DNA from: an uncultured Gammaproteobacteria bacterium
GTDB lineage: Bacteria > Patescibacteriota > Patescibacteriia > S139-126
Direction of reading: 5' to 3'
DNA: 64,000 nucleotides
Assembly (NCBI GenBank): GCA_964620905.1
Contig: CAZUKA010000001.1
Location: 519,646 to 583,645, forward strand
The notes under the pieces were generated by a model. It did no database searches. It was not told the origin of the DNA and was given only the letters and a program-made list of their open reading frames with translations. The translations under genes were made by a program, and so were the position numbers. Each line of letters opens with the position of its first letter. Within the stretch, counting starts at the first letter, position 1. Of this stretch, positions 7,886-22,061 are shown one piece after another.

Positions 7886-7961
7886 TCCGCGGTAGCTCAG
7901 TCGGTAGAGCAACTGGCTGTTAACCAGTGGGTCGTCGGTTCGAGTCCGACCCGCGGAGCCA
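7886..7961 (+). tRNA. tRNA-Asn (GTT), CCA encoded.
   Basis: 7-bp acceptor tccgcgg/ccgcgga. D-loop agctcagtcggtagagc. Anticodon stem actgg/ccagt with loop ctGTTaa. T-arm ggttcgagtcc. Confidence 0.9.
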
Positions 7962-9560
7962 TATGGGATGAACGGACGCAAAACGTCCGTTTTTCTCTTT
8001 ATTCACGGGCTGAACCAGATGTTCGAAAATCTTATTTGGGTCTATTTTCTCTCCTATCAGTTCTCCCACGTGGTCAAAGATGATCTTGAACGCTTTGTGA
8101 TACGAAACCTGGGCGATTTTGCCGTTTAACGTGGCGTTCGAAAATACGAGCGACAGTAAAAGTCTTTTATCGTCCACCATCTCCTCCGTGTCACGGTTGA
8201 TGTAAATTCTCCATGCCTTTTTGGCCACCTGCAAAACCGTGACGCCCATTTCGTAATATTTCAGGTTGGCGTCCTTGTGCTTATTCAGCGTATCGAGTAT
8301 CTGTTCCTGCTCGACTTTGTATTGCTCGAATTTCTTTTTATAAAAGTCCTCGCTGATTTTGTCGTCGATCTTGTCGTCATAGAGCTTATCCAGCCTTTGC
8401 GTGGCTACTTCATAGCGGCGGTTAAGCTCGCCGGTGGCTTTATTGCGGAATTCTATCTCCTCGCTATGGCTTTCTTTCAAAGCTTCTTGCACCCAGTTGA
8501 GCATATTCTCTACGGCTTGCTCGTTTTTCGGGTTGAGCGAGTTGATTTTCTCAAGCATCTGTACGTCCACCGCTTCCTGCCGCACAAATTCGCGTTTGGT
8601 GCAGTTTTTATAATGATTGCAATGGCCGTACCAGTGACCTCGCTGTATCTCCCAAGTGATCCGGCCTTTGCATTCATCGCACCGGAAGACGTTTTTAAAG
8701 AGCGGATTGTGCTTGAAGTATCTTGGCGTGCCGTTTGTATGCATGATTTCCTGGCACCGGTCGAATAATTCTTTCTTGATCAAGGGTTCGTGTCCGGCTT
8801 TGGTTACTTTGCCATCCCAACGGTTCATGCCGTAATAAAACGGATCGCCCAGAAGCTGGTGGACTCTTGAGTGGCTCACTTTGTTGCCTCCCCGGGACCG
8901 CAATCCTTCCTCGTAGATGACATCGGCCAGCTTCTTGGTCGAGTAGCGGTTCGTGGCATACAGATCAAACATCCGTTTGACGAGCGGCGCTTTATCCGGA
9001 TCAAGCACGTGGATTTTGTGTCCCTTCTCGCCGATGGTTTTATATCCGAGCGGCGGCTTGGCCGGAAGCCATCCTTGAGAGAGTTTTTCCTTTTGACCTT
9101 TCTTTACGTTTTCGGAAAGAAGCCGGATGTAATACTCGGCCGTAGCCACTTTGACGCGCCACATAAACCATTCGTGCGATTTGGAGTCTTTGTGAAGCGT
9201 GCAGTTTTCTTTTACCAGATGGATTTTGTGATCGTCGCTCTCCAATATCCAATTATCGATCACCGGCACATCGGCAAAGTTTCTGGTCAGCCGATCGGTG
9301 GTTTCCACGAACACGGTGCTGATCTTAGCTTTGCTTACGAACGCCATCATTTCGTGGAAGATTTTGCGCTGAACCTTACCGGCGGCCGACTCTTGGATAG
9401 CAAAAACCTTCATGAGCTCGTAGCCGTTGCGGTCGGCATAATCACGAAGGAGTTTTTCCTGGGCTGGAAGCGAGTATCCGGTATCCTCCTGATCCTTGGA
9501 TGAGACACGGGCATATCCTACGGCTTTCGGCGGTTGATTTTCATTCATTGTCATAGTCAT
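7920..9560 (-). CDS. Large serine recombinase (serine integrase).
   Basis: N-terminal resolvase-type catalytic motif VGYARVSSKDQ. Central recombinase domain. C-terminal Cys-rich zinc ribbon (CDECKG...HCNHYKNC). The annotated C-terminus reads through the tRNA-Asn 3' half, so the true stop may differ. Confidence 0.85.
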   Translation of the reverse strand: MTMTMNENQPPKAVGYARVSSKDQEDTGYSLPAQEKLLRDYADRNGYELMKVFAIQESAAGKVQRKIFHEMMAFVSKAKISTVFVETTDRLTRNFADVPVIDNWILESDDHKIHLVKENCTLHKDSKSHEWFMWRVKVATAEYYIRLLSENVKKGQKEKLSQGWLPAKPPLGYKTIGEKGHKIHVLDPDKAPLVKRMFDLYATNRYSTKKLADVIYEEGLRSRGGNKVSHSRVHQLLGDPFYYGMNRWDGKVTKAGHEPLIKKELFDRCQEIMHTNGTPRYFKHNPLFKNVFRCDECKGRITWEIQRGHWYGHCNHYKNCTKREFVRQEAVDVQMLEKINSLNPKNEQAVENMLNWVQEALKESHSEEIEFRNKATGELNRRYEVATQRLDKLYDDKIDDKISEDFYKKKFEQYKVEQEQILDTLNKHKDANLKYYEMGVTVLQVAKKAWRIYINRDTEEMVDDKRLLLSLVFSNATLNGKIAQVSYHKAFKIIFDHVGELIGEKIDPNKIFEHLVQPVNKEKNGRFASVHPIWLRGSDSNRRPTG

Positions 9561-9699
9561 TTTTTGTTAATAATTATTTGTTCGAATACGACCTTTGGTA
9601 CCCAACACCCTATACTAATTTTTATGACAAGCTAAGCGGCAGTTGCCCACATTCTCTAAAAACACCGCAGTTAACTGTAAAATCCTGTAATTATTCTGT

Positions 9700-9862
9700 T
9701 TTTTGCTCATTTTGTTGGGTTTTACCGGGTTTTGTCGGGTTTATTTTTTCCATTTTTGGTGTTAGTTAGTGTCAGTTAGTGTTAGTTACTTTTGTTCAAA
9801 ACGTTGCCGTTTATTGCCGAATCTTGCCGAAAACCGGTGGTATCTGGTGGGTTCTGGTGAGA
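9700..9862. repeat. Cluster of short tandem direct repeats (iteron-like).
   Basis: The cluster contains gggttttaccgggttttgtcgggttt. It contains gttagttagtgtcagttagtgttagttac. It contains ttgccg three times. It contains ggtggtatctggtgggttctggtg. It lies between the integrase start and the 3' end of gene 9866-10438. Confidence 0.5.
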
Positions 9863-9865
9863 TGT

Positions 9866-10438
9866 TTATTTGCCTCGCATCGTCATTTTATCCAGTAAAT
9901 CGGCCTTCATCCGGCGGATTTCCTGTAATTTCTGCGAGCCACCGTTATTTTCTTTATAATTTTCTTTAATTTCTTTTAAACCCTTAACTTCTATATCACC
10001 GCCGTCCGAGGCAGTCTGCTTCCCAAGCCGATCGGTTTTAGATGCAGATTGGCTTCCGTCCTGCATGAGATGTAGGACGGAAAGCAGAGTGATACTCCGA
10101 GGTTTGAACTTGGCATCCTTGCCCCGGACTTTCGTGATCGCGATAAAGCACCACTCCTCGAGCTTAGTGAGGCACTTCTTAATTGTCCGCCAATCTTTGA
10201 GGCCGGAGTACGTGAGAAGCGTTTTGTTGGATGCTTCTATGGTTTGGCTCGCCTTGTTGGAAGCAATCTCGGTTAAGGCGCAATAAACATTCCGCAGGTT
10301 GCGGTAAGCATCATCGCTGATATGTTTATCGAGCCACTGCTTCCGCATATACCGCAAAGCCGGCTTATCCTGATAAGCAAACGGCGCTTCGCGGTAGTCG
10401 CGGACTTTATGATTTTTATTTTGCTGGTTCATCGTCAT
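9866..10438 (-). CDS. Hypothetical protein on the island, possibly replication or regulatory.
   Basis: 190 aa, basic, GC-rich. No conserved motif recognised. The function is suggested only by the adjacent iteron-like repeats. Confidence 0.45.
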   Translation of the reverse strand: MTMNQQNKNHKVRDYREAPFAYQDKPALRYMRKQWLDKHISDDAYRNLRNVYCALTEIASNKASQTIEASNKTLLTYSGLKDWRTIKKCLTKLEEWCFIAITKVRGKDAKFKPRSITLLSVLHLMQDGSQSASKTDRLGKQTASDGGDIEVKGLKEIKENYKENNGGSQKLQEIRRMKADLLDKMTMRGK

Positions 10439-11016: not shown

Positions 11017-11682
11017 CTACACCTGTTTTATTTTGTACTCCGGATTGATTTTGTAACCGCTCACGGACCGGCCGGTTATGAAATTATCAACGCCAAGATT
11101 GTACTTTGCTTTGCGATTGATCATGAGCTTGGCATTGTGCAATGCTTTCCGGTTTTTGCTTCCGGTAAGCTCTACCAGCTCGTCTGTCGGCACGAATGTT
11201 TTACGCTCAAGTAAAATCCGGACGATCTTTTGTCTTTGCTTTTCTTTGCCCATTTCATAGCAATGTTTGGCTTTCGGCTCTCGGTATAAGTCGCCGTCGC
11301 TGGAGAAATAGATGACTTTCTTTTTATCTGTCGGTTTCGCTTTCTTGGCGGCTAGTCCGTAGGCCGCGCCCTCGGCCGCCATGCGAGCAATGCTCTTTTC
11401 CAAGTCTGCAACTTTGTTTATGGCCGTCTGATACGCTCGGGTCATAGCTTCCACGCTTTGCGTATTACGGTTCAATGCTTTGGTCAGGTCTACAATAGCC
11501 GGATCACCAGTCTTTACGATGTCCTGCGGATTCTCTATATTCGCAAAATCTTTGAGAGCAGACCGTAGCTCGCTAACGACAGCAGAAATGGTAAATGGAT
11601 AGGTGCTCGTCTTGGCGACAGTCCGTTTGATATTGAATTTGTACTTGGTAGCCAGCGCGGCCTTTTTCATTTTCATAGTCAT
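11017..11682 (-). CDS. Hypothetical protein on the island.
   Basis: 221 aa. Ala/Lys-rich central region. No recognised motif. Confidence 0.5.
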   Translation of the reverse strand: MTMKMKKAALATKYKFNIKRTVAKTSTYPFTISAVVSELRSALKDFANIENPQDIVKTGDPAIVDLTKALNRNTQSVEAMTRAYQTAINKVADLEKSIARMAAEGAAYGLAAKKAKPTDKKKVIYFSSDGDLYREPKAKHCYEMGKEKQRQKIVRILLERKTFVPTDELVELTGSKNRKALHNAKLMINRKAKYNLGVDNFITGRSVSGYKINPEYKIKQV

Positions 11683-11713
11683 CTTTCTATTATTATGACA
11701 AAACGCGGCGATT

Positions 11714-11742
11714 TTGACAATGAAAAATGAAAGCGGTAAAAT
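11714..11742 (+). promoter_or_regulatory. Candidate sigma-70 promoter (TTGACA-17-TAAAAT) for the xis-mod-res operon.
   Basis: ttgacaatgaaaaatgaaagcggtaaaat lies in the divergent intergenic region, about 25 nt upstream of the 11767 start. Confidence 0.45.
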
Positions 11743-11766: not shown

Positions 11767-11958
11767 ATGAGTGACATCGAAAAACTTTTCACCATTGAGG
11801 AAGTCGCCGAGATTTTAAGAGTCCATACCCGGACCGTTACCCGGTATATTGAGGCTGGCCGACTTAAGGCGTCAAAGCTTGGGGTCTGGCGGATCAAGCA
11901 GTCTGATTTAGACGCATTTTTGGAAGAAACGAGTAACGTTAAGAAAAAGAAGAAATAA
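11767..11958 (+). CDS. Excisionase-family (MerR-like) HTH DNA-binding protein.
   Basis: LFTIEEVAEILRVHTRTVTRYIEAGRLKASKLGVWRIKQSDLDAFLEE matches the excisionase-family HTH pattern. It lies 2 nt upstream of mod. Confidence 0.7.
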   Translation: MSDIEKLFTIEEVAEILRVHTRTVTRYIEAGRLKASKLGVWRIKQSDLDAFLEETSNVKKKKK

Positions 11959-11960
11959 AT

Positions 11961-13493
11961 ATGGCATCACTAAATTGGATTGGAAAAGAGGCAGTCTCAA
12001 ACCACGATAAGGAGGTGCCTTTTAAGTTGCTCAAAAAAGTTAAGACAGCTTCAGTTGGCGACAACTCTCAAAATCTAATAATCCACGGAGATAATCTTGA
12101 GGCTCTTAAGGCACTCATGCCTCATTATGTTGGGAAAATAAAATGTATCTATATCGATCCTCCGTACAACACCGGAAATGAAGGTTGGGTATATAACGAT
12201 AAAGTAAACTCGCCGAAAATTAAGCAGTGGCTTGGTAAAGTTGTCGGCCGAGAATCCGAAGACCTAACTCGCCATGATAAATGGTTATGCATGATGTATC
12301 CGCGTCTCAAGCTCATGCGAGACTTACTTGCAGATAACGGATTTATTTTTGTCTCCGTAGATGACAATGAACACTGCAATCTTCGTGGTGCAATGGACGA
12401 GATCTTTCTTGAGAAAAATCATATTACGACTATTGCGTGGCAAAGAAAAAAAGAGAGTTCAAATGATAGCAGAAACATCTCTGTGAAAGCAGAATATATT
12501 GTGGTATACGCACGGTCAGAAATTGCCCAGTTAAACTTACTTTCTTTAAGTGAATCCTATATTGAGACCGCTTATAAATTACCCACCAAAGAATTCCCTC
12601 ATGGGAAGTGGAGGCCTGTTCCTATAGCCACGACAAAAGGACATAAAAGTGGTGGATATACTTATGAGATTGTCACGCCTTCCGGTAAAAAGCATAAAAG
12701 AGAATGGGCTTATCCCGAGGAAAGTTATAAGCGTCTCTTAGGTGAAGGAAAAATATATTTCGGAAAAAGCGGTGATGGGGTTCCTCAGCGTGTTATTTAC
12801 GCGCACGAAAGCACGGGCATACCAGCAAGCAATATTTGGACGGATGTAGCGACAAACAAAGAAGGAAAAAATGAGATAGTAAATTTATTTGGAGATGGTA
12901 CTTTCGAAACGCCAAAGCCCGTAGGGTTAATTAGAAGAATTTTGGAACTCGCAACGGAAAAAGATTCGTTAATCTTAGATTCCTTTGCTGGCTCTGGCAC
13001 AACCGGTCATGCGGTGTTGGATTTGAATAAGGAAGATAACGGAACTCGTAAATTTATTATGGTTGAAATGGAAGACAAAGTTGCAAAGGACATTACCGCT
13101 GAACGGGTTAAGAGAGCGATTAAGAAATACGATTATAAGGATGGCTTCGAGTATTGCGAATTAGATAAGCCGCTCTTTAATGAGCACGGCCAGATTGAGG
13201 AAACATGTGATTTCCGGCAATTCGCAACGTATATTTACTTTACTGAAACGCAAACCAACATTGATCCAAAACTGATTAATGAGAATTATATCGGAGAACT
13301 CGGTACGACTGAGTACTACCTGCTTTATCAAGGAAAGAATAAGAACGATCTCAATAAATCTTTCCTGAAGAAAATCAGAAAAACCGATAATAAGAAGGTC
13401 ATTTATGCGGACCGGTGCTTGATCGACGACGAAACGCTTGCTAAGCATAACGTCGTGTTCAAGCAGATACCTTATGAAGTAAAAGTCTATTAA
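11961..13493 (+). CDS. mod: Type III restriction-modification methyltransferase (Mod), beta-class N6A/N4C MTase.
   Basis: Motif IV IYIDPPYNTGNEGW precedes motif I LDSFAGSGTTGHAV, which is the beta-class order. Res follows 4 nt downstream. Confidence 0.85.
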   Translation: MASLNWIGKEAVSNHDKEVPFKLLKKVKTASVGDNSQNLIIHGDNLEALKALMPHYVGKIKCIYIDPPYNTGNEGWVYNDKVNSPKIKQWLGKVVGRESEDLTRHDKWLCMMYPRLKLMRDLLADNGFIFVSVDDNEHCNLRGAMDEIFLEKNHITTIAWQRKKESSNDSRNISVKAEYIVVYARSEIAQLNLLSLSESYIETAYKLPTKEFPHGKWRPVPIATTKGHKSGGYTYEIVTPSGKKHKREWAYPEESYKRLLGEGKIYFGKSGDGVPQRVIYAHESTGIPASNIWTDVATNKEGKNEIVNLFGDGTFETPKPVGLIRRILELATEKDSLILDSFAGSGTTGHAVLDLNKEDNGTRKFIMVEMEDKVAKDITAERVKRAIKKYDYKDGFEYCELDKPLFNEHGQIEETCDFRQFATYIYFTETQTNIDPKLINENYIGELGTTEYYLLYQGKNKNDLNKSFLKKIRKTDNKKVIYADRCLIDDETLAKHNVVFKQIPYEVKVY

Positions 13494-13497
13494 TACT

Positions 13498-15753
13498 ATG
13501 GAACTAAAACGCTACCAAAAAAATACATTAGAGACGCTCGAGCAATTCTTGAAGGAATTGCATAAAGCTGGCTTGAAGTACGCCTTCATGGGCATTACGG
13601 AAAAGCCGTACAGAGCTGAAGCTTTTGGCGAAGTTCCATTTGTCTGCATTAAAATTCCTACCGGGGGTGGCAAGACATTGGTTGGCTGTCATGCCGTAGA
13701 AAAAATAATGAGCGGTGCCCTACAGAACAAATTGGATCGTGGCATAGTTCTTTGGTTTACACCGTCCGAAGCCATCAAGACACAAACACTTAAGAAATTT
13801 AAAGATCGCAAAGATTGGCATCGCAGGGCGTTGGACGAAGCCTTTGATAATAACGTTAAGGTGTTTTCAAACGAGGAGGCTCTTACCATTCGCAAAGAAG
13901 ACGTAAACGGAAACCTTTGTATTATTGTTGCCAGCCTTGAGGCATTCAGAAAAGAAAAAACACTCCAAAATAAATATAAAGTCTATCAGGAGAATGGTGC
14001 GCTCTTAGATCACTTTGAGCATATCGAGGAATCAGATTATCTCGAACGAGATAGTGAAGGAACCGTTGTTAATTCTCTTGCTAATGTCGTCCGGTTAAGC
14101 AACCCACTTGTGGTTATCGATGAGGGTCATAAAACGGCTACTAAACTTTCGATTGATTTCCTCAAAGACCTTAATCCCAGCTTTATTATTGAATATACCG
14201 CTACTCCACGGGATAACAGCAACATTCTCGTTGAGGTTCATGCTTCCGAGCTGAAAGAAGAACAAATGGTGAAGATCCCCATCGTTCTCGAGAGCGCCGC
14301 GCAGTGGCAGAACGCCATTATCCGCGGTGTTGAAAAGCGCATTGAGCTAGAGAAGGATGCAAAGAAAATTAAAGGCGAGTATATACGGCCTATTGCATTG
14401 CTTCAGGCACAGCCAAAAGATGAAAATATCACTGTTGAGAAAATAAAAGAATTTTTACTCGAACGGAAGATACCTGCTGAACAGATCGCAATAAAAATCT
14501 CAGGAAAAAACGAACTCGAGAGAGTAGACCTCTTCGACAGAAAATGTCCGATACGTTACATCATTACAGTAAATGCCCTAGCCGAAGGATGGGATTGTTC
14601 CTTCGCTTATATTCTTGTTTCGGTTGCGAACCTTGGCTCAAAAATTGCTGTTGAGCAGATCATCGGGCGCATCATTCGTTTACCGTACGCCAAGAAAAAA
14701 GCCAATGAAGACTTTAATAGAAGTTATGTCTTTGCTTCTGCTAGGAACTTTAATGAGGCAGCAAGCCAAATTATTTCAGGCCTTGAGACTAACGGCTACA
14801 GTAAGGCAGATATCATAGGTGCGGATAAAAAGGACGCTTCGTATGAGTTGGAAACCAAAAAGGCGGTTTCTGACACGCTCAAAATGCCGATGGTGGCTTT
14901 GGATGGTGAACTGTTGTCATTTGAAGACTTGATTGGTAGTGATTTTGAGTTGTCAAAGCAGGATTACAAATTTGAGTTCCAGATCCATTACGATAACGAC
15001 GGCCGAGCGATCATTGATATCAAAGAGGATGAATGGATGCGCGGCAAGCAGATGTTTTTGAAGCTAAGTTATTCAGACAAAAACTTCACTAAGAATGAGT
15101 TGGTGCAATGGCTTGATAAAAAGCTACGTTTCCCGCTTTTAGAAAAATCAGACAAGGTTGGTTTTCTCGATAAAGCTATTGAGCACCAGCTTAAAACTCA
15201 TACACTTTCCGAACTTTCAGTAAATCGCTACGTCTTAGCTGATCGCTTGAGCGAGGTTATCAACGGCATCCTTGAGGAATATGCCAAGAAAAAATTTGAT
15301 GCTCTGTTGCAGAAAAAGAAAATCGTCACTGAACAGTTCGAGGCATTTCCGGCTGTTATTACTCTCAAGCGACCAGAGCCGAAGGAGTTTAACAAATGCT
15401 ATTACGAGAAAATCGATAAATTGAATGGTGAAGAGCGTGAGTTCGTTGATCGTCTCGATCTCGACACCTTACCCAATGTTAAATATTGGGTTCGTAGCCG
15501 CGAGAAAACCGATCCGTTTTATATTCAGGGTTGGAAGCGAGGAAAGTTTTATCCGGACTTCATTGCGGTCACTAAGAAGGGCGCAATCGTAGCTCTTGAA
15601 TGGAAGGGTGCGGACCGGATAAGCAACGAAGATACGGCATACAAAGTTGAGATCGGTGGAATGTGGTCGAAGCTTGGCAAAGGAAAACTATACTTTTTCT
15701 TGGTGCATACGGGGAATGTTGAAGAAGTGCTGAAGGAAGTTAAAGAATTGTAA
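13498..15753 (+). CDS. res: Type III restriction endonuclease Res subunit (SF2 helicase-like).
   Basis: Walker A KIPTGGGKT. Motif II VVIDEGHK. Helicase C-terminal motifs. 751 aa, immediately downstream of mod. Confidence 0.85.
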   Translation: MELKRYQKNTLETLEQFLKELHKAGLKYAFMGITEKPYRAEAFGEVPFVCIKIPTGGGKTLVGCHAVEKIMSGALQNKLDRGIVLWFTPSEAIKTQTLKKFKDRKDWHRRALDEAFDNNVKVFSNEEALTIRKEDVNGNLCIIVASLEAFRKEKTLQNKYKVYQENGALLDHFEHIEESDYLERDSEGTVVNSLANVVRLSNPLVVIDEGHKTATKLSIDFLKDLNPSFIIEYTATPRDNSNILVEVHASELKEEQMVKIPIVLESAAQWQNAIIRGVEKRIELEKDAKKIKGEYIRPIALLQAQPKDENITVEKIKEFLLERKIPAEQIAIKISGKNELERVDLFDRKCPIRYIITVNALAEGWDCSFAYILVSVANLGSKIAVEQIIGRIIRLPYAKKKANEDFNRSYVFASARNFNEAASQIISGLETNGYSKADIIGADKKDASYELETKKAVSDTLKMPMVALDGELLSFEDLIGSDFELSKQDYKFEFQIHYDNDGRAIIDIKEDEWMRGKQMFLKLSYSDKNFTKNELVQWLDKKLRFPLLEKSDKVGFLDKAIEHQLKTHTLSELSVNRYVLADRLSEVINGILEEYAKKKFDALLQKKKIVTEQFEAFPAVITLKRPEPKEFNKCYYEKIDKLNGEEREFVDRLDLDTLPNVKYWVRSREKTDPFYIQGWKRGKFYPDFIAVTKKGAIVALEWKGADRISNEDTAYKVEIGGMWSKLGKGKLYFFLVHTGNVEEVLKEVKEL

Positions 15754-15765
15754 ATCCTGTAATAA

Positions 15766-16680
15766 ATGGCTAATGAGAATCTTGCAACAAAAGGACCTTC
15801 TCCAAGTGACCTGATAGAACAAAATTCTAAGCAGATCTTTGAGTCAAAGTTACCGCTGACAGGTAGAATATTTATCTGGTATCCAGACAAAAATCCTAAT
15901 ACTGACGGTCACATTGAATTTCTAGGAGAACATGGTTCTACAACTGTTAAACTGTTTTTCCAATTGAAAAGCAGTGAGCAGGATATTGCATATCATGATT
16001 GCGATCGTTCCTTTTTAAATTATTGTTATCAATCTGCTGAACCAACTTTTATAGTTTTTGTTAATATTCCCCAAAAAAAAGTTTACTGGGAGCACATTAC
16101 TCAGTCTTACATTGAGGATGTGCTTGGCGTAAAAAATTTGACCGATTTTAATCAACAAACTAAAAGGATAAGTTTTTCAGAAGAAAAACTCATAGATAAT
16201 AATGCACAAAAACTTATTGAGGAATGTAGGAAACATTATCAAGATAAGTCAAAAGTAGAGGCAGAAGTACAAAGCAATATTTCCGCAGAGCAAAAGCAGA
16301 TCGATATTTTAACCGATGGGGCGCAAAAAGAAGAGGGTGTTGATTACGACATAATAAGAAAAAAGTTCGCCTCGTTGCTTGGTAACATGACCGATAAGAT
16401 GATGTTATATTTTGCTCTGGTTCATATTCTCAAGCCATTTTATTTAGATCAAAGAGGAGAGAAAAAACGCAGAATACTCCTGAGATTCTTGCAAATAACT
16501 GATTCTCAAGAACGATTTCTAATAGAAAGCCTGATAAATGCGAATTTGCTAGGGAGAGTTGGCGAGTTAATTTTTCCAATACGCAAAGAAGAAGCAGTTT
16601 CCGTTATTGAACGTTACATTGATAATGGCCAAGTTGATCTAGCAGAAATAACGCAATTATTCTCTCAAAATGAAGATTAA
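15766..16680 (+). CDS. Uncharacterised protein (304 aa). The N-terminal domain may be restriction-endonuclease-like. Candidate defence-associated.
   Basis: Lies 12 nt after the res stop. Its stop overlaps the next gene's start by 11 nt. No NTPase or MTase motifs. The N-terminal region GRIFIWYPDKNPNTDGHIEFLGEHG...KLFFQLK is reminiscent of DUF4365-type domains found in defence islands, but the assignment is uncertain. Confidence 0.5.
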   Translation: MANENLATKGPSPSDLIEQNSKQIFESKLPLTGRIFIWYPDKNPNTDGHIEFLGEHGSTTVKLFFQLKSSEQDIAYHDCDRSFLNYCYQSAEPTFIVFVNIPQKKVYWEHITQSYIEDVLGVKNLTDFNQQTKRISFSEEKLIDNNAQKLIEECRKHYQDKSKVEAEVQSNISAEQKQIDILTDGAQKEEGVDYDIIRKKFASLLGNMTDKMMLYFALVHILKPFYLDQRGEKKRRILLRFLQITDSQERFLIESLINANLLGRVGELIFPIRKEEAVSVIERYIDNGQVDLAEITQLFSQNED

Positions 16681-19108
16681 ACCAGACAAAAACTTAATAG
16701 CGACATACATGTCGCTCAGTAGCAAGAAGGCCGATGAATATCTGGCTAATTTAGCGAATCAAATAAAAACAGAAATTCAGAACTCATCAGATTATGATGA
16801 AATTTTTGAGTATTTGGAATTACTTGGAGAATTTGTTTATAAAGCACCTAACGAAACTACTCGGATCGTAAGCCACATTGTGGATAAAAAACCCAATCCT
16901 CCAGCCACTCACAAATCTCCATTCGGTGAGTTTGAAGGAAAGTCATACAAGGACTTGATATTGAAGTGTATCGAACTACTTGGTCATATCAGATATATTG
17001 CTCCGGATGATGTCTTGAAATTAATTGCGCAGCTTTCGCTATCAGAAGACCAAAATATAAAAAGCAAAACTCTAGAAGCCTTAAAAAAGTTTGCTCAATA
17101 CGATTTTAATGTCCTTACCAAGAGTAAAATTGGTTATGGAGCACAGAGAAAGGCTCTTGATTTCATCCTTGCATGGACCCGTGATGAGCAATTTCAACAT
17201 ATTGATTTTGTTGAAAAAGTATTAAGAGAGTTGCTTAGCGCTTCTGTAGAAGGAACCACGTCAGGATTAAACGATGAAGCACAGTATACAATAACGATGC
17301 ATTTTGGTGCTGTCTCGCCAACAGATTTTTTGAAGAAATTGCGCCGTGAGGTAATAGATCTTGTATATGAGTTATATTCAACAACCAAAGATTCAAAATT
17401 AAAATTAAAACTTGTAGAGATTCTTGATGAAACAACACGGACTCCCTCAAATGTAGCTTATGGAGATGATGTAGCTCAAATGATTGTTGATGATCTTAAA
17501 TATCTAACTGGAATTTATCGTAAAATCATCTTCCCAGAAACCGGAAAGATGAATGATCATTTAGGCATCATTGCCACTGTTGAGGAGCGACTCTATTGGA
17601 TTAACAGAAGCGAGAAAAGGCGTGCTGAAGAATCGGAACAACTACGTCAAGATATTTTGAATGACGAACTGTATCATCTTTTCAGGTTACTTGTTGGGGA
17701 CCCTGTTACATATCAGGAACAGGAAGGTTGGAATACGGCTGAAAAAAATAGAGCCGAAGAGACTGAGCAAGTCATAAGCTCAATTGAGGAAACTGAAATT
17801 GAAAAATGGCTTGAAAAATTTAATAAAATTGCTTCTCAGCATGTGCTTGTTGATGAGTGGAAATTTAACCCCTTTAAAGGACTTTTAAGAAAGCTTGCTG
17901 AAACAAAACCTATTGTAGCTGAGAAAATCTTAGAAAGTGTGTTCGTAAGCAATGCCCCTCTCAAGCATTTTACTAGCAGCTTCTTGGATGGTTTTAGAAT
18001 GGGTTCCCATTTCAAACAATGGGATAAATTTATATCGAAAATCATTGAGAATAAAGATACTTCTTTGATAAGTGGGATAGTTTTCTCTCTTAATCTTCCC
18101 GCTGATGCAGACTTACAGAAGCTTATGAGAGAAGAGGATATTGATTTACTTAAAAAAATAGCAAATCGAGTTGACCAATTTTCATTCCTTGATCAGGAAG
18201 ATGACCGGGTCCTGTTATATGCCCTCTTTAATACTTTGTCTCGTAATTTCCAGCGCGCCCCTCAAAGCATTGAGCCGCTAATTGTAGAGCAGATAAAGAA
18301 ACACCCTAAATATTTGGGTATGTTTTTCTCTGAGTTATCAATGATTACTCATAGGAAGTGGATCGATATCAAAAATCTACAACCCGAAACCATTGCTTTT
18401 CTTGAGGAGAAAATTGTTGAGCTTCCTGATGTTGATTGGCACGTTCAAGAGCTGTTGTTAGAAATCGGACAACAATATGGTCTTGGCAAAGTACTGGACG
18501 TGTTTATGAATAGAATTAAAAAAGATGCAGAGAAAGATAAAAAGAAGCCACGACGTATTGGTGACGATAGGTATGAAGTGATTCCTTACCATTTCAACCC
18601 AGACTTAAGTGCGTTTATTACTGAGCACGAAGACTACATAAAAATTGCTGGCAGTTGGGTTGCTGAAATGACTACCGACTGGAGTGGCTACAATTGGCAC
18701 GTTAGTCATTTTCTACAAAGGAATGGTAAAGGGTTTGATGAAATCTTGGCCTCTCTTATAGAGAAAGGTGATGACGAGAGCTTATTGAAAGCAGCTCGTG
18801 CTATGCATTCTATTGAAGGAACTAATTTTGATTTGTGTATTGAAATAGTACGCCAAACTGATAATAAAAGAGTTTTAAGTCAGGTCGACAGCAATATGTA
18901 CACAACTGGTGTCGTGTCAGGTGAGTATGGACTAGCGGAAGCCTATGAGGCTAAAGCAAAAGCACTAGAAAAATATAAAAATGATGAAAGTAAACGAGTT
19001 ATGAAATTTGCGGAAAGAATGATAGTAAGTTTTCTTGATAGTGCAAAAAGAGAACGCCAGCGCACGGACGAAGAAAAACAGCTAAGAAAAATTGAATTTG
19101 AGGAATAA
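16670..19108 (+). CDS. Uncharacterised large alpha-helical protein (812 aa), partner of 15766-16680.
   Basis: Translationally coupled to the upstream gene. Helical-repeat-like composition. No Walker A (only GEFEGKS, which is one residue short). No recognisable catalytic motif. Confidence 0.5.
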   Translation: MKIKPDKNLIATYMSLSSKKADEYLANLANQIKTEIQNSSDYDEIFEYLELLGEFVYKAPNETTRIVSHIVDKKPNPPATHKSPFGEFEGKSYKDLILKCIELLGHIRYIAPDDVLKLIAQLSLSEDQNIKSKTLEALKKFAQYDFNVLTKSKIGYGAQRKALDFILAWTRDEQFQHIDFVEKVLRELLSASVEGTTSGLNDEAQYTITMHFGAVSPTDFLKKLRREVIDLVYELYSTTKDSKLKLKLVEILDETTRTPSNVAYGDDVAQMIVDDLKYLTGIYRKIIFPETGKMNDHLGIIATVEERLYWINRSEKRRAEESEQLRQDILNDELYHLFRLLVGDPVTYQEQEGWNTAEKNRAEETEQVISSIEETEIEKWLEKFNKIASQHVLVDEWKFNPFKGLLRKLAETKPIVAEKILESVFVSNAPLKHFTSSFLDGFRMGSHFKQWDKFISKIIENKDTSLISGIVFSLNLPADADLQKLMREEDIDLLKKIANRVDQFSFLDQEDDRVLLYALFNTLSRNFQRAPQSIEPLIVEQIKKHPKYLGMFFSELSMITHRKWIDIKNLQPETIAFLEEKIVELPDVDWHVQELLLEIGQQYGLGKVLDVFMNRIKKDAEKDKKKPRRIGDDRYEVIPYHFNPDLSAFITEHEDYIKIAGSWVAEMTTDWSGYNWHVSHFLQRNGKGFDEILASLIEKGDDESLLKAARAMHSIEGTNFDLCIEIVRQTDNKRVLSQVDSNMYTTGVVSGEYGLAEAYEAKAKALEKYKNDESKRVMKFAERMIVSFLDSAKRERQRTDEEKQLRKIEFEE

Positions 19109-20723: not shown

Positions 20724-20744
20724 AGTCCGACCCGCGGAGCCATA
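20724..20744 (+). repeat. attR-side direct repeat, a copy of the tRNA-Asn 3' end.
   Basis: The 21 nt agtccgacccgcggagccata are identical to 7943-7963. A hairpin cccgccaacggcggg lies just upstream. Confidence 0.7.
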
Positions 20745-22016
20745 ACAAAGAACACCACATTTATTGGTGTTTTTTGTATAGGGCAAGTGAAGGTTATAAT
20801 CAAACTTTATAATTTTGTGTATAATTATACATAGACCTTAAATTTAATAATTAAGTTGTATAATTATGTGGGAATTATTTATTGATATTTTAGCTAGTTT
20901 ATGCTCATTTGTGCTCTCAATATCTATTTTTATTATTTTGCCGATCGCATTATATAGAGGTATTAAGAAAAAGAATTGGAAATTATTAAGAATTGTTTTA
21001 TTCACGATCATTTCATCTGCCGGTATTTATACTTTACTCATCTTTTCTATATTACCATCATTAATAAATGAGCCTATTAAAACCCAAAGTAGTGTAGATA
21101 ATTTGTTACCTATGTACGGTGGAGAAAATCGAATAAAAACATCTTCTCAAATAGAAGCAGACGAAAAATTTATATCAGAAATGATTGACATTGCAGGAAG
21201 TAGAGAGGAAGCGGCAGAGGGTATCGTAAACGGAGCTTGGGAATTTTTTGAGCAGGGTGATATTGATATAGCGATGAAAAGATTTAATCAAGCTTGGCTA
21301 CTAGACCCACAGAATATAGAAGCTTATAAGGGCTTCGCCGCAATTTTAGAAAAGAGAGGTCAGCCTGAAGAAGCACGAAAGATGCTACAAAAAGCTCAAG
21401 ACGTTAGTACTGCAAAGTAAAATATAATATATATTAATAAAAACTATTGTTATATGGAGAGTAGGGTAGACTAGAAAGTATATATTACACCACACCGCTG
21501 GTTCTAATTTTCTCCACATTATGAAATATACCTAATGAAGGTAGTTAAATTTTTTAGTTCCTAGCGACCGTGTTGTTTAGTAATAGTTTGTCAGTTATAA
21601 TATAGAATACTCCACTAAGGGGTATTTTTGTGAAAATGTTTTTTTATTGACAAAACAGTAAAAGTGTAACGTTTTTTAAATAACTGCCCATTATATAAAT
21701 GTATAATTGTGTTAATAATTAACAATAAAAATATGGATAAAAAAATGTATATAAATAGCACCATAGGTCTTGCTATTTTGACCATATTTATCCCAAGAGT
21801 TCTTTTATAGTAACTTTTTCTCAATCTGTTACAATTACTAATATATACACATCCTATCCAGACATTCTAAACTAATATAATTTATTTCAATTATCACCTA
21901 AAGGCTTAACTATTTGTTAAGCCTTTTTAATTATTTAAGTTATATTTATTTAACTCTTTCTTACTAATTTTTATGGATAAATATATCCTAGTAAGTTCGG
22001 TAAGTATGTAATCTGT
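20745..22016. mobile_element. Degenerate second islet (remnant element or satellite) of about 1.3 kb.
   Basis: Bounded by 45-nt direct repeats (20736-20780 and 22017-22061) that consist of the tRNA 3' tail plus a terminator-like hairpin. It contains a single TPR gene and no recombinase. Confidence 0.45.
20866..21420 (+). CDS. Membrane-anchored TPR-repeat protein.
   Basis: Two N-terminal transmembrane helices. C-terminal TPR-like repeats (AWEFFEQGDIDIAMKRFNQAWLLDPQNIEAYKGFAAILEKRGQPEEA). Confidence 0.55.
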   Translation: MWELFIDILASLCSFVLSISIFIILPIALYRGIKKKNWKLLRIVLFTIISSAGIYTLLIFSILPSLINEPIKTQSSVDNLLPMYGGENRIKTSSQIEADEKFISEMIDIAGSREEAAEGIVNGAWEFFEQGDIDIAMKRFNQAWLLDPQNIEAYKGFAAILEKRGQPEEARKMLQKAQDVSTAK

Positions 22017-22061
22017 GGAGCCATACAAAAACCACCAATCTTTATTGGTGTTTTTTGTATA
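22017..22061 (+). repeat. Direct repeat: tRNA-Asn 3' tail plus terminator hairpin. Likely the original host sequence downstream of the tRNA.
   Basis: ggagccatacaaaaaccaccaatctttattggtgttttttgtata matches 20736-20780 with a few mismatches. It contains the hairpin caccaat/attggtg followed by a T-run. Confidence 0.55.

Follow-up and report, generated by a model that had tools for sequence, protein, structure and literature searches.

The window analysed here (the whole stretch of 64,000 nucleotides) contains an integrated island of ~12.8 kb, which sits at a tRNA-Asn gene of a CPR (Patescibacteria) bacterium and carries five arrays of short tandem repeats in a non-coding interval between two of its genes (Table 1). 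The island is delimited by a perfect 21-bp direct repeat, and GC content is 0.40-0.49 from about 8 to 21 kb, compared with ~0.35 in the surroundings, and falls after ~21 kb. The mobile-element setting that had been proposed was thus borne out by the boundaries, the target gene and the base composition. The final ~14 codons of the serine recombinase gene run through the att core into the tRNA-Asn gene, so that the C-terminus of the enzyme would change upon excision. A shared core of 21 bp is unusually long for a serine recombinase. At the right end, a segment located behind the tRNA 3′ fragment (20736-20780) recurs with 78% identity 1.3 kb further on (22017-22061); the two copies are separated by a segment of low GC content (0.30) with a 184-aa TPR-like ORF, and the pair may be what is left of a second insertion, in tandem, at this site.

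On the minus strand, the order of the elements is 221-aa gene, DUF5659 gene (80 aa), 96-aa gene, 190-aa gene, arrays and the gene of the 546-aa serine recombinase. The gene of the 63-aa HTH_17 excisionase-family protein is read in the opposite direction, and so is a type III-like restriction-modification pair. The cargo looks like a defence-type load; it varies among related islands, a minority of which carry methylase-like or restriction-like genes at low identity. Among the island ORFs examined, Pfam gave no match to a helicase, primase or loader, and no ParA-, ParM- or TubZ-like ORF was found between 7.9 and 20.7 kb. A partition centromere of the parC/parS type was rejected for lack of partner genes.

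The repeats had been placed between the 5′ end of the integrase gene and the 190-aa gene. This position holds, with the orientation corrected: the two neighboring genes are read from the minus strand, which places the arrays downstream of the stop codon of the 190-aa gene and upstream of the recombinase start. Neither a terminator nor a sigma-70-type promoter was detected between the 190-aa and recombinase genes. The 190-aa gene, the arrays and the recombinase gene probably belong to one transcription unit.

Table 1. Positions of the island boundaries, genes, arrays and neighboring segments in the window.
Feature	Position	Strand	Details
Direct repeat, left copy	7943..7963	+	AGTCCGACCCGCGGAGCCATA (21 bp); 3′ end of tRNA-Asn 7886-7961; island boundary
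Large serine recombinase, 546 aa	7920..9560	-	ORF and family match
Recombinase-proximal block	9580..9652	-	ATGTGGGCAACTnnnGCTTAGCTTGTC...TAGTATAGGGTG...GGTACCAAAGGTCGnATTCGAAC; ~70 bp just upstream of recombinase start
Array E	9665..9694	-	TTACAG at 10-bp spacing; two good copies, third degenerate
Tail behind array A	9700..9714	-	CAAAATGAGCAAAAA; read from sequence
Array A	9716..9745	-	3 x 10-bp units AAAACCCnnn (plus YGGGTTTTRY)
Array B	9759..9788	-	3 x 10-bp units TAACTNACAC (plus GTGTTAGTTA)
Tail/spacer	9790..9803	-	CGTTTTGAACAAAA; near-palindrome TTTTGnnCAAAA, read from sequence
Array C	9804..9833	-	3 x 10-bp units, invariant core CGGCAA (plus TTGCCG)
Array D	9836..9865	-	3 x 10-bp units; minus nnnCCACCAG; plus GGTGGTATCT GGTGGGTTCT GGTGAGATGT
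190-aa winged-helix protein, candidate initiator	9866..10438	-	AlphaFold, fold search, profile search
82% AT segment	9940..9999	.	60 bp, coding, 3′ part of 190-aa gene; weak period-10 repeat (TRF 9945-9979)
221-aa protein, C-terminal OmpR/PhoB-type winged helix (predicted)	11017..11682	-	Fold search on model
63-aa HTH_17 excisionase-family (Xis/MerR-like) winged-helix protein	11767..11958	+	HTH_17 E 1.6e-17
Cargo	11961-19108		Type III-like methylase 510 aa, restriction subunit 751 aa, DUF4365 304 aa, 812-aa protein without Pfam match
Direct repeat, right copy	20724..20744	+	21 bp, perfect; other island boundary

Anatomy of the repeat arrays

Positions 9665-9865, ~200 non-coding bases, are occupied by five arrays (A-E), each with its 10-bp unit repeated head-to-tail three times. 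The four families of short repeats originally reported at 9700-9862 were all recovered there and proved to be more regular than described, and a fifth one, array E, had been missed. TRF yielded period-10 arrays at 9710-9742 (TTTTGTCGGG, 3.3 copies), 9759-9788 (GTGTTAGTTA, 3.0 copies) and 9836-9863 (GGTGGGATCT, 2.8 copies); the plus-strand motif of array C occurs at 9804, 9814 and 9824. On a 10-bp grid laid over 9716-9865, the four strong arrays A, B, C and D fall into a single common register and read YGGGTTTTRY, TTRGTGTYAG, GCCGnnnnnn and GGTGnnnnnT, respectively, three times each. Self-identity within this interval was 0.57 at lag 10 and 0.47 at lag 20 (other lags, ~0.30). Exact 5-6-mers present three times at a lag of 10 were confined to the array region within the 64-kb window, and none was seen in shuffled sequences; the two-letter motif GGGTTT was removed from this count by a filter.

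The arrays differ in detail. Array D, from 9865 downward, follows the 190-aa stop codon without a gap, and array B is the best-conserved triplet with nine of ten columns invariant. The two good copies of array E read CTGTAA on the plus strand (9675 and 9685), and the degenerate copy is located at 9665. An E-array decamer, AATTACAGGA (plus TCCTGTAATT; 9683-9692), recurs once exactly at 9921-9930 in the 3′ part of the 190-aa gene, a second copy that may be due to chance, of low probability by our own rough estimate. The A-tracts of array A are phased, from which intrinsic curvature would be expected at this array. Tails resembling TTTGAGCAAAA come after many arrays in relatives, as read from the sequences.

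An AT-rich segment, of the kind that the original prediction had suggested looking for, was found ~75 bp off the arrays (Table 1) and is a possible unwinding element; a second AT-rich segment (9540-9589) spans the int start. Reading of the sequences revealed no convincing match to a DnaA box in any array family.

Related loci and the variable slot

We fetched 92 related CPR loci, 74 of which hold both the 190-aa and the recombinase genes. The 190-aa protein has 99 close homologs (47-96% identity, full-length hits), none of them with a Pfam domain, and the few from named sources belong to CPR/Paceibacterota assemblies. All loci that are long enough share a core consisting of the 221-aa, DUF5659, 96-aa, 190-aa and recombinase genes. 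The stretch between the 190-aa stop codon and the recombinase-proximal block forms a variable slot. In 15 loci, the slot holds arrays only, as in the window; nine loci combine triplet arrays with a short sigma70_r4-like HTH gene, and three combine them with two genes. The slot of 18 further loci is occupied by a ~150-aa gene that is weakly terminase-small-subunit-like (phrog_2538, E 3e-7), accompanied by two-copy pairs only in 17 and also by a triplet in L046. In the remaining 29, a 68-aa HEAT-like gene and a 178-aa HTH gene are found and triplet arrays are lacking. An intact 190-aa gene occurs without a triplet array in 46 of the 74 loci.

The arrays recur in these relatives and are concentrated in the slot: we counted 75 triplets in 57 kb of slot sequence versus 8 in 802 kb elsewhere (~130-fold enrichment). 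All of them have one orientation, and the copy number is exactly three in 55 of 60 distinct arrays and four in the other five. The families are collinear across loci (D/F, C, B, A, E, G, with subsets absent) in divergent elements from different CPR lineages. The most widespread is the array C family, with 42 in-slot pairs compared with one elsewhere, on the same strand; the array D family is also present in L001, L015 and L017, and a full triplet of array E (ATTACAGGnn) is seen in L015, L010 and L013. One or two other genes lie between the arrays and the 190-aa gene in several relatives.

Recurrence in related elements argues against low-complexity drift, the outcome that the original prediction had set against a functional array. 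Short-period arrays are common in AT-rich genomes, and viral contigs that are unrelated also contain these decamers in three copies. Confinement to a single slot at 130-fold enrichment, a copy number of three in most arrays, a fixed orientation and a family order that is kept between CPR lineages nevertheless make non-functional slippage or drift hardly credible as an origin of the repeats.

The viral contigs came to light in IMG/VR motif scans (AAACCC x3, CGGCAA x3 and AACTNACAC x3), which matched many unrelated contigs. None of the CGGCAA matches was accompanied by other modules or the conserved block, and the motif matches fit chance among the many viral 10-bp arrays. Arrays of the type (AAACCCnnnn)n were seen in contigs L094, L100, L110, L115, L135 and L143, in some of which a second repeat family adjoins. 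Five AAACCC arrays that were translated (L094, L135, L095, L143 and L104) are in frame in coding genes, as KPKETQQNP-type repeats after GGRP(K/A); the C-terminal parts of two of these proteins look DnaD-like or replisome-organiser-like according to our own reading of their motifs.

The arrays of 11 window-type loci can be aligned column by column, and in some of these loci the D position is taken by another family, AACTGACC. Among the 11 close relatives, conservation is 0.90 for core and 0.87 for non-core positions; as the two are about equally conserved, this close group provides no selective footprint. The exact common register seen in the window is lost in relatives, in which the C-to-B distance is 46, 47, 48 or 57 bp and the B-to-A distance stays at 40 or 50 bp. 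Each triplet is therefore probably an independent module, and higher-order phasing across arrays was rejected on the same ground.

The recombinase-proximal block was conserved in each of the related loci displayed, whether or not arrays are present. Its centre varies over 3 nt, many copies contain the palindrome TCGAATTCGA, and no sigma-70-type promoter was found within 9580-9652. The block may be the constant cis site of the element, and it may be the block, not the arrays, that is the constant partner of the constant 190-aa protein.

In all loci, each array family is rich in A+C on one and the same strand, a bias unexplained by DNA-binding models. The array-bearing RNA read from the coding strand contains 44 percent A, 27 percent C, 14 percent G and 15 percent U, and it folds worse than shuffled sequences (z +1.5; 95 of 100 shuffles at least as well folded). 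Such properties would suit an untranslated, unstructured, C-rich and G-poor leader acting in int polarity, either by rut-like Rho loading or as a structure-free spacer. An RNA-level signal of this kind has no rationale for the 10-nt period, the three copies per array or the distinct conserved cores, nor was an Rfam match found, and we consider it very unlikely. The 10-bp period fits recognition of B-DNA, and both this period and the unstructured RNA count for a DNA-level site. A structured RNA was rejected, given the lack of an Rfam match and folding worse than that of shuffles, and so were DNA uptake sequences, because the cores reach at most ~4x their expected count in the 64-kb window and are not over-represented in its host part.

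The genes that share the slot with the arrays, or take their place, suggest another type of site. Small terminases have their binding sites in phased repeats of bent DNA close to the gene that encodes them, as at SPP1 pac (PMC6316719). The slot of relatives contains HTH genes that match the terminase-small-subunit PHROG (phrog_2538, E 3e-7 and 1.5e-4), and also a sigma70_r4-like HTH gene; in one locus group, the arrays lie behind a short HTH gene or overlap with its 3′ end, and variant-specific 2 x 10-bp repeats are located at slot-gene starts (GATAC in 17 of 17 loci of one type, CTCCAC or GTCTAC elsewhere). The arrays could accordingly be pac-like or operator-like docking sites for these TerS-like HTH proteins; the window island would have lost the slot gene and kept the site families, on which co-resident elements or helper phages would act in trans, as in a satellite. 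We regard this as unlikely. Assignment to the terminases is weak (no Pfam match to a terminase above threshold), and among the core genes of the related loci we saw neither a large terminase nor a capsid gene. IMG/VR protein scans yielded no relatives of the 190-aa protein or of the TerS-like slot proteins. The 29 loci with a two-gene slot are devoid of triplet arrays, and the window island has no terS-like gene in or beside its repeats, unlike a phage pac site. The two-copy repeats, moreover, are partly in coding sequence and may be translational features.

In L002, L005, L004, L010, L018 and other loci, the slot contains small HTH genes that are weakly TerS-like, together with the 68-aa HEAT-like gene. 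The slot gene set of the relatives resembles that of a phage satellite, here in CPR bacteria.

Candidate binding proteins

Three proteins of the island were considered as candidate binders. In the AlphaFold model of the 190-aa protein, residues 25-120 form a winged helix (pLDDT ~90), behind which come a disordered linker and a C-terminal helix. Its top PDB fold matches include the N-terminal domains of staphylococcal RepA initiators (4pql, 5kbj and 4pt7); these matches are weak (Foldseek E ~6e-3) and no better than those to MarR, CodY and TFE. The protein's own PHROG matches are likewise weak (E 0.005-0.04). A profile search of 1.8 billion proteins retrieved 333 remote homologs. Of ten long ones, seven gave hits to PHROGs with the annotation DnaD-like helicase loader, replication initiation protein or replication initiation O-like, and their best E-values ranged from 1e-5 to 2e-16. 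In three out of five genes coding for remote homologs, tandem direct repeats are present in the linker just past the winged-helix domain, and a homolog with 47% identity is encoded in a phage-like recombination/replication module beside a DUF1064 Holliday-junction resolvase. At the level of these profile matches, the 190-aa protein is remotely kin to phage O-like/DnaD-like replication initiators. As to the Rep or HTH homology that was to be checked for it, the predicted fold is a winged helix and remote homologs match initiator families, and its own matches are weak. Across loci, the protein is 66-96% identical while array families change or drop out; since it is near-invariant and the window alone displays five unlike cores, one recognition surface cannot explain all of them.

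The 221-aa protein is composed of an N-terminal helical domain and a C-terminal domain, without a receiver or membrane domain. A fold search with the C-terminal model returned almost only OmpR/PhoB-family domains (ToxR with a TM score of 0.61, VanR, YycF, CadC, AdeR, RstA, KdpE and PhoB), with weak E-values of 0.12 or higher and no Pfam Trans_reg_C match. The OmpR/PhoB family binds tandem direct repeats at 10-11 bp, and on the strength of this model the 221-aa protein is a candidate binder of such repeats. By analogy, the 63-aa HTH_17 protein is a candidate head-to-tail binder: winged-helix proteins of its class (RdfS, and also Cox, Pukovnik Xis and BldC) form head-to-tail oligomers with ~10 bp per protomer (PMC11963761).

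The two genes are transcribed divergently, and 11692-11742 contains back-to-back near-consensus promoters, TTGTCA-17-CATAAT (-) for the 221-aa gene and TTGACA-17-TAAAAT (+) for the HTH_17 gene, which are kept in relatives as CATTGTCAAAATCGCCGTCTTTTGTCATAAT. A site shared between the arrays and this promoter was rejected, given that the conserved promoter region has no array-like motif. Relatives with a ~30-40%-identical variant of the 221-aa protein (L005, L009, L021, L023 and others) carry a conserved inverted repeat, TTAGTGAATGG...CCATTCACTAA, in front of the gene of that variant; some of these loci have an extra small Cys-rich ORF there as well, and the window has neither the inverted repeat nor the ORF.

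The original prediction had named repressor operator arrays beside iterons, and this alternative is equally viable. In one form of this alternative, the arrays would be operators or activator sites controlling int, bound head-to-tail by the 221-aa protein, the HTH_17 (Xis/BldC-like) protein or both; binding would bend the DNA upstream of int and set the choice between integration and excision. The arrays lie directly upstream of int and its conserved proximal block, the fold matches of the 221-aa C-terminus point to a family favoring direct repeats of this spacing, and the HTH_17 match (Table 1) points to a class with the corresponding oligomerization. We hold this control function to be possible but doubtful. 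All array-less relatives keep both the 221-aa and HTH_17 proteins. The identity of the 221-aa protein, the most variable of the core proteins (26-86% between loci), does not track the array families present, with no co-variation of clades. The divergent promoter region from which both genes are read is itself free of array-like motifs, no sigma-70-type promoter was found near int, and the fold-search E-values of the 221-aa protein are those given above. The arrays are located 1.7 kb from the att core and are therefore not intasome arm sites.

Comparison with known systems and biological meaning

As our best single reading, held tentatively, the array region would be an iteron-type origin or initiator-assembly region serving the excised circular element. 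The arrays would constitute a cis-acting protein-docking platform of the island, with a module of three head-to-tail 10-bp sites, one per helical turn, and five modules side by side. The 10-bp period, the three copies and the single orientation would place three winged-helix protomers on one face of B-DNA. The layout would run from an initiator-like gene through short iterons to the serine recombinase gene, and the AT-rich segment upstream of the arrays, within the candidate initiator gene, might serve for unwinding. Two points of this reading are our inference: binding of any of the arrays by the 190-aa protein and not by another product of the island, and replication of the element as such.

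The iteron claim of the original prediction thus stood in part. The winged-helix neighbor, its initiator-like remote homologs and the AT-rich segment argue for it, and the array-less relatives and the lack of helicase, primase and loader genes argue against it. The repeats lie beside the gene of a candidate initiator, as expected of an origin, and they neither always accompany nor co-vary with that initiator. Because so many loci with an intact 190-aa gene are array-less, the arrays are not an obligatory origin of this protein. Classical iterons measure 17-22 bp and belong to a single family, which also counts against an origin. Our confidence in the origin reading is limited by the array-less relatives, the five unlike cores, the genes intervening between the arrays and the 190-aa gene, and the missing helicase or loader.

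Among known systems, the putative origin of SCCmec (pattern 2), an intergenic region between cch2 and ccrC with three short AAGTG iterons (PMC7581432), shares with our locus the order of initiator gene, short direct repeats and large serine recombinase gene, the integrative island as its setting and the threefold occurrence of short iterons. It differs in that its initiator is an MCM-/SF3-like helicase with a C-terminal DNA-binding domain, whereas the island encodes a 190-aa winged-helix protein and no helicase; in that it has one iteron family in 23 bp instead of five unlike families of 3 x 10 bp; and in that window-type arrays are dispensable in many relatives. The SaPI origins, in which iterons are found just downstream of rep (PMC7581432), offer a parallel in the position of repeats downstream of a candidate initiator gene within an island.

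The iterons of lambda are ~19 bp long, dyad-symmetric and of a single family. Similarities to lambda O and SPP1 gp38 lie in the O-like/DnaD-like PHROG matches of the 190-aa remote homologs, some of which have repeats past the winged helix, and in the proximity of direct repeats to an AT-rich segment, which in SPP1 and lambda is located in or beside the initiator gene. In SPP1, gp38 binds direct repeats next to an AT-rich unwinding element that lies within the gp38 gene itself (PMC6316719). Unlike these initiators, the 190-aa protein has no C-terminal helicase-loader-binding domain, and its repeats are outside the gene.

The filaments of Xis, Cox, RdfS and BldC resemble what is predicted here in that each ~10 bp of direct repeat takes up one protomer and an array comprises three to six sites (PMC11963761), and the island has an HTH_17 gene of its own. 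The head-to-tail spacing of one helical turn is present in our arrays (exactly 10 bp), and a location at att arms or a promoter is not: the sites of Xis-, Cox-, RdfS- and BldC-type proteins flank attP or overlap promoters in tyrosine-recombinase elements, whereas the present arrays accompany a serine enzyme at a distance from the att core. Similarly, the sites of OmpR, PhoB and ToxR are direct repeats of 10-11 bp upstream of the regulated gene, and the island encodes a predicted OmpR-like domain; the differences are the lack of a receiver or membrane domain and of a recognisable promoter, and three sites per array as opposed to paired half-sites. The array region would work like short-iteron origins and like winged-helix filament sites, and departs from each in one defining respect.

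To our knowledge, the mobile elements of CPR/Patescibacteria are almost uncharacterised, and our literature searches retrieved nothing relevant on DUF5659 or on CPR serine-recombinase elements. Nor did the literature searched contain a multi-family triplet grammar alternating with small HTH genes in one slot. The analysis defines a widespread, conserved island family made up of the 221-aa, DUF5659, 96-aa and 190-aa genes, a variable slot and a serine recombinase gene, the slot being filled by either phased triplet arrays or small HTH genes. A precise and cheap binding assay for five small island proteins follows from the 3 x 10-bp grammar.

If the arrays are an origin, these islands would replicate after excision, like SaPI and SCCmec, with a winged-helix protein as a minimal initiator. 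Should they instead dock trans-acting proteins, this would indicate cross-talk among the elements of organisms whose genomes are very small. It is also conceivable, although quite unlikely, that the triplets are address labels, each family being cognate to a different winged-helix or TerS-like protein of sibling islands or helper phages. Several different helpers could then replicate, package or induce an island that has lost its slot gene, and such islands would be the first satellite-like, multi-helper hitchhikers described in CPR bacteria.
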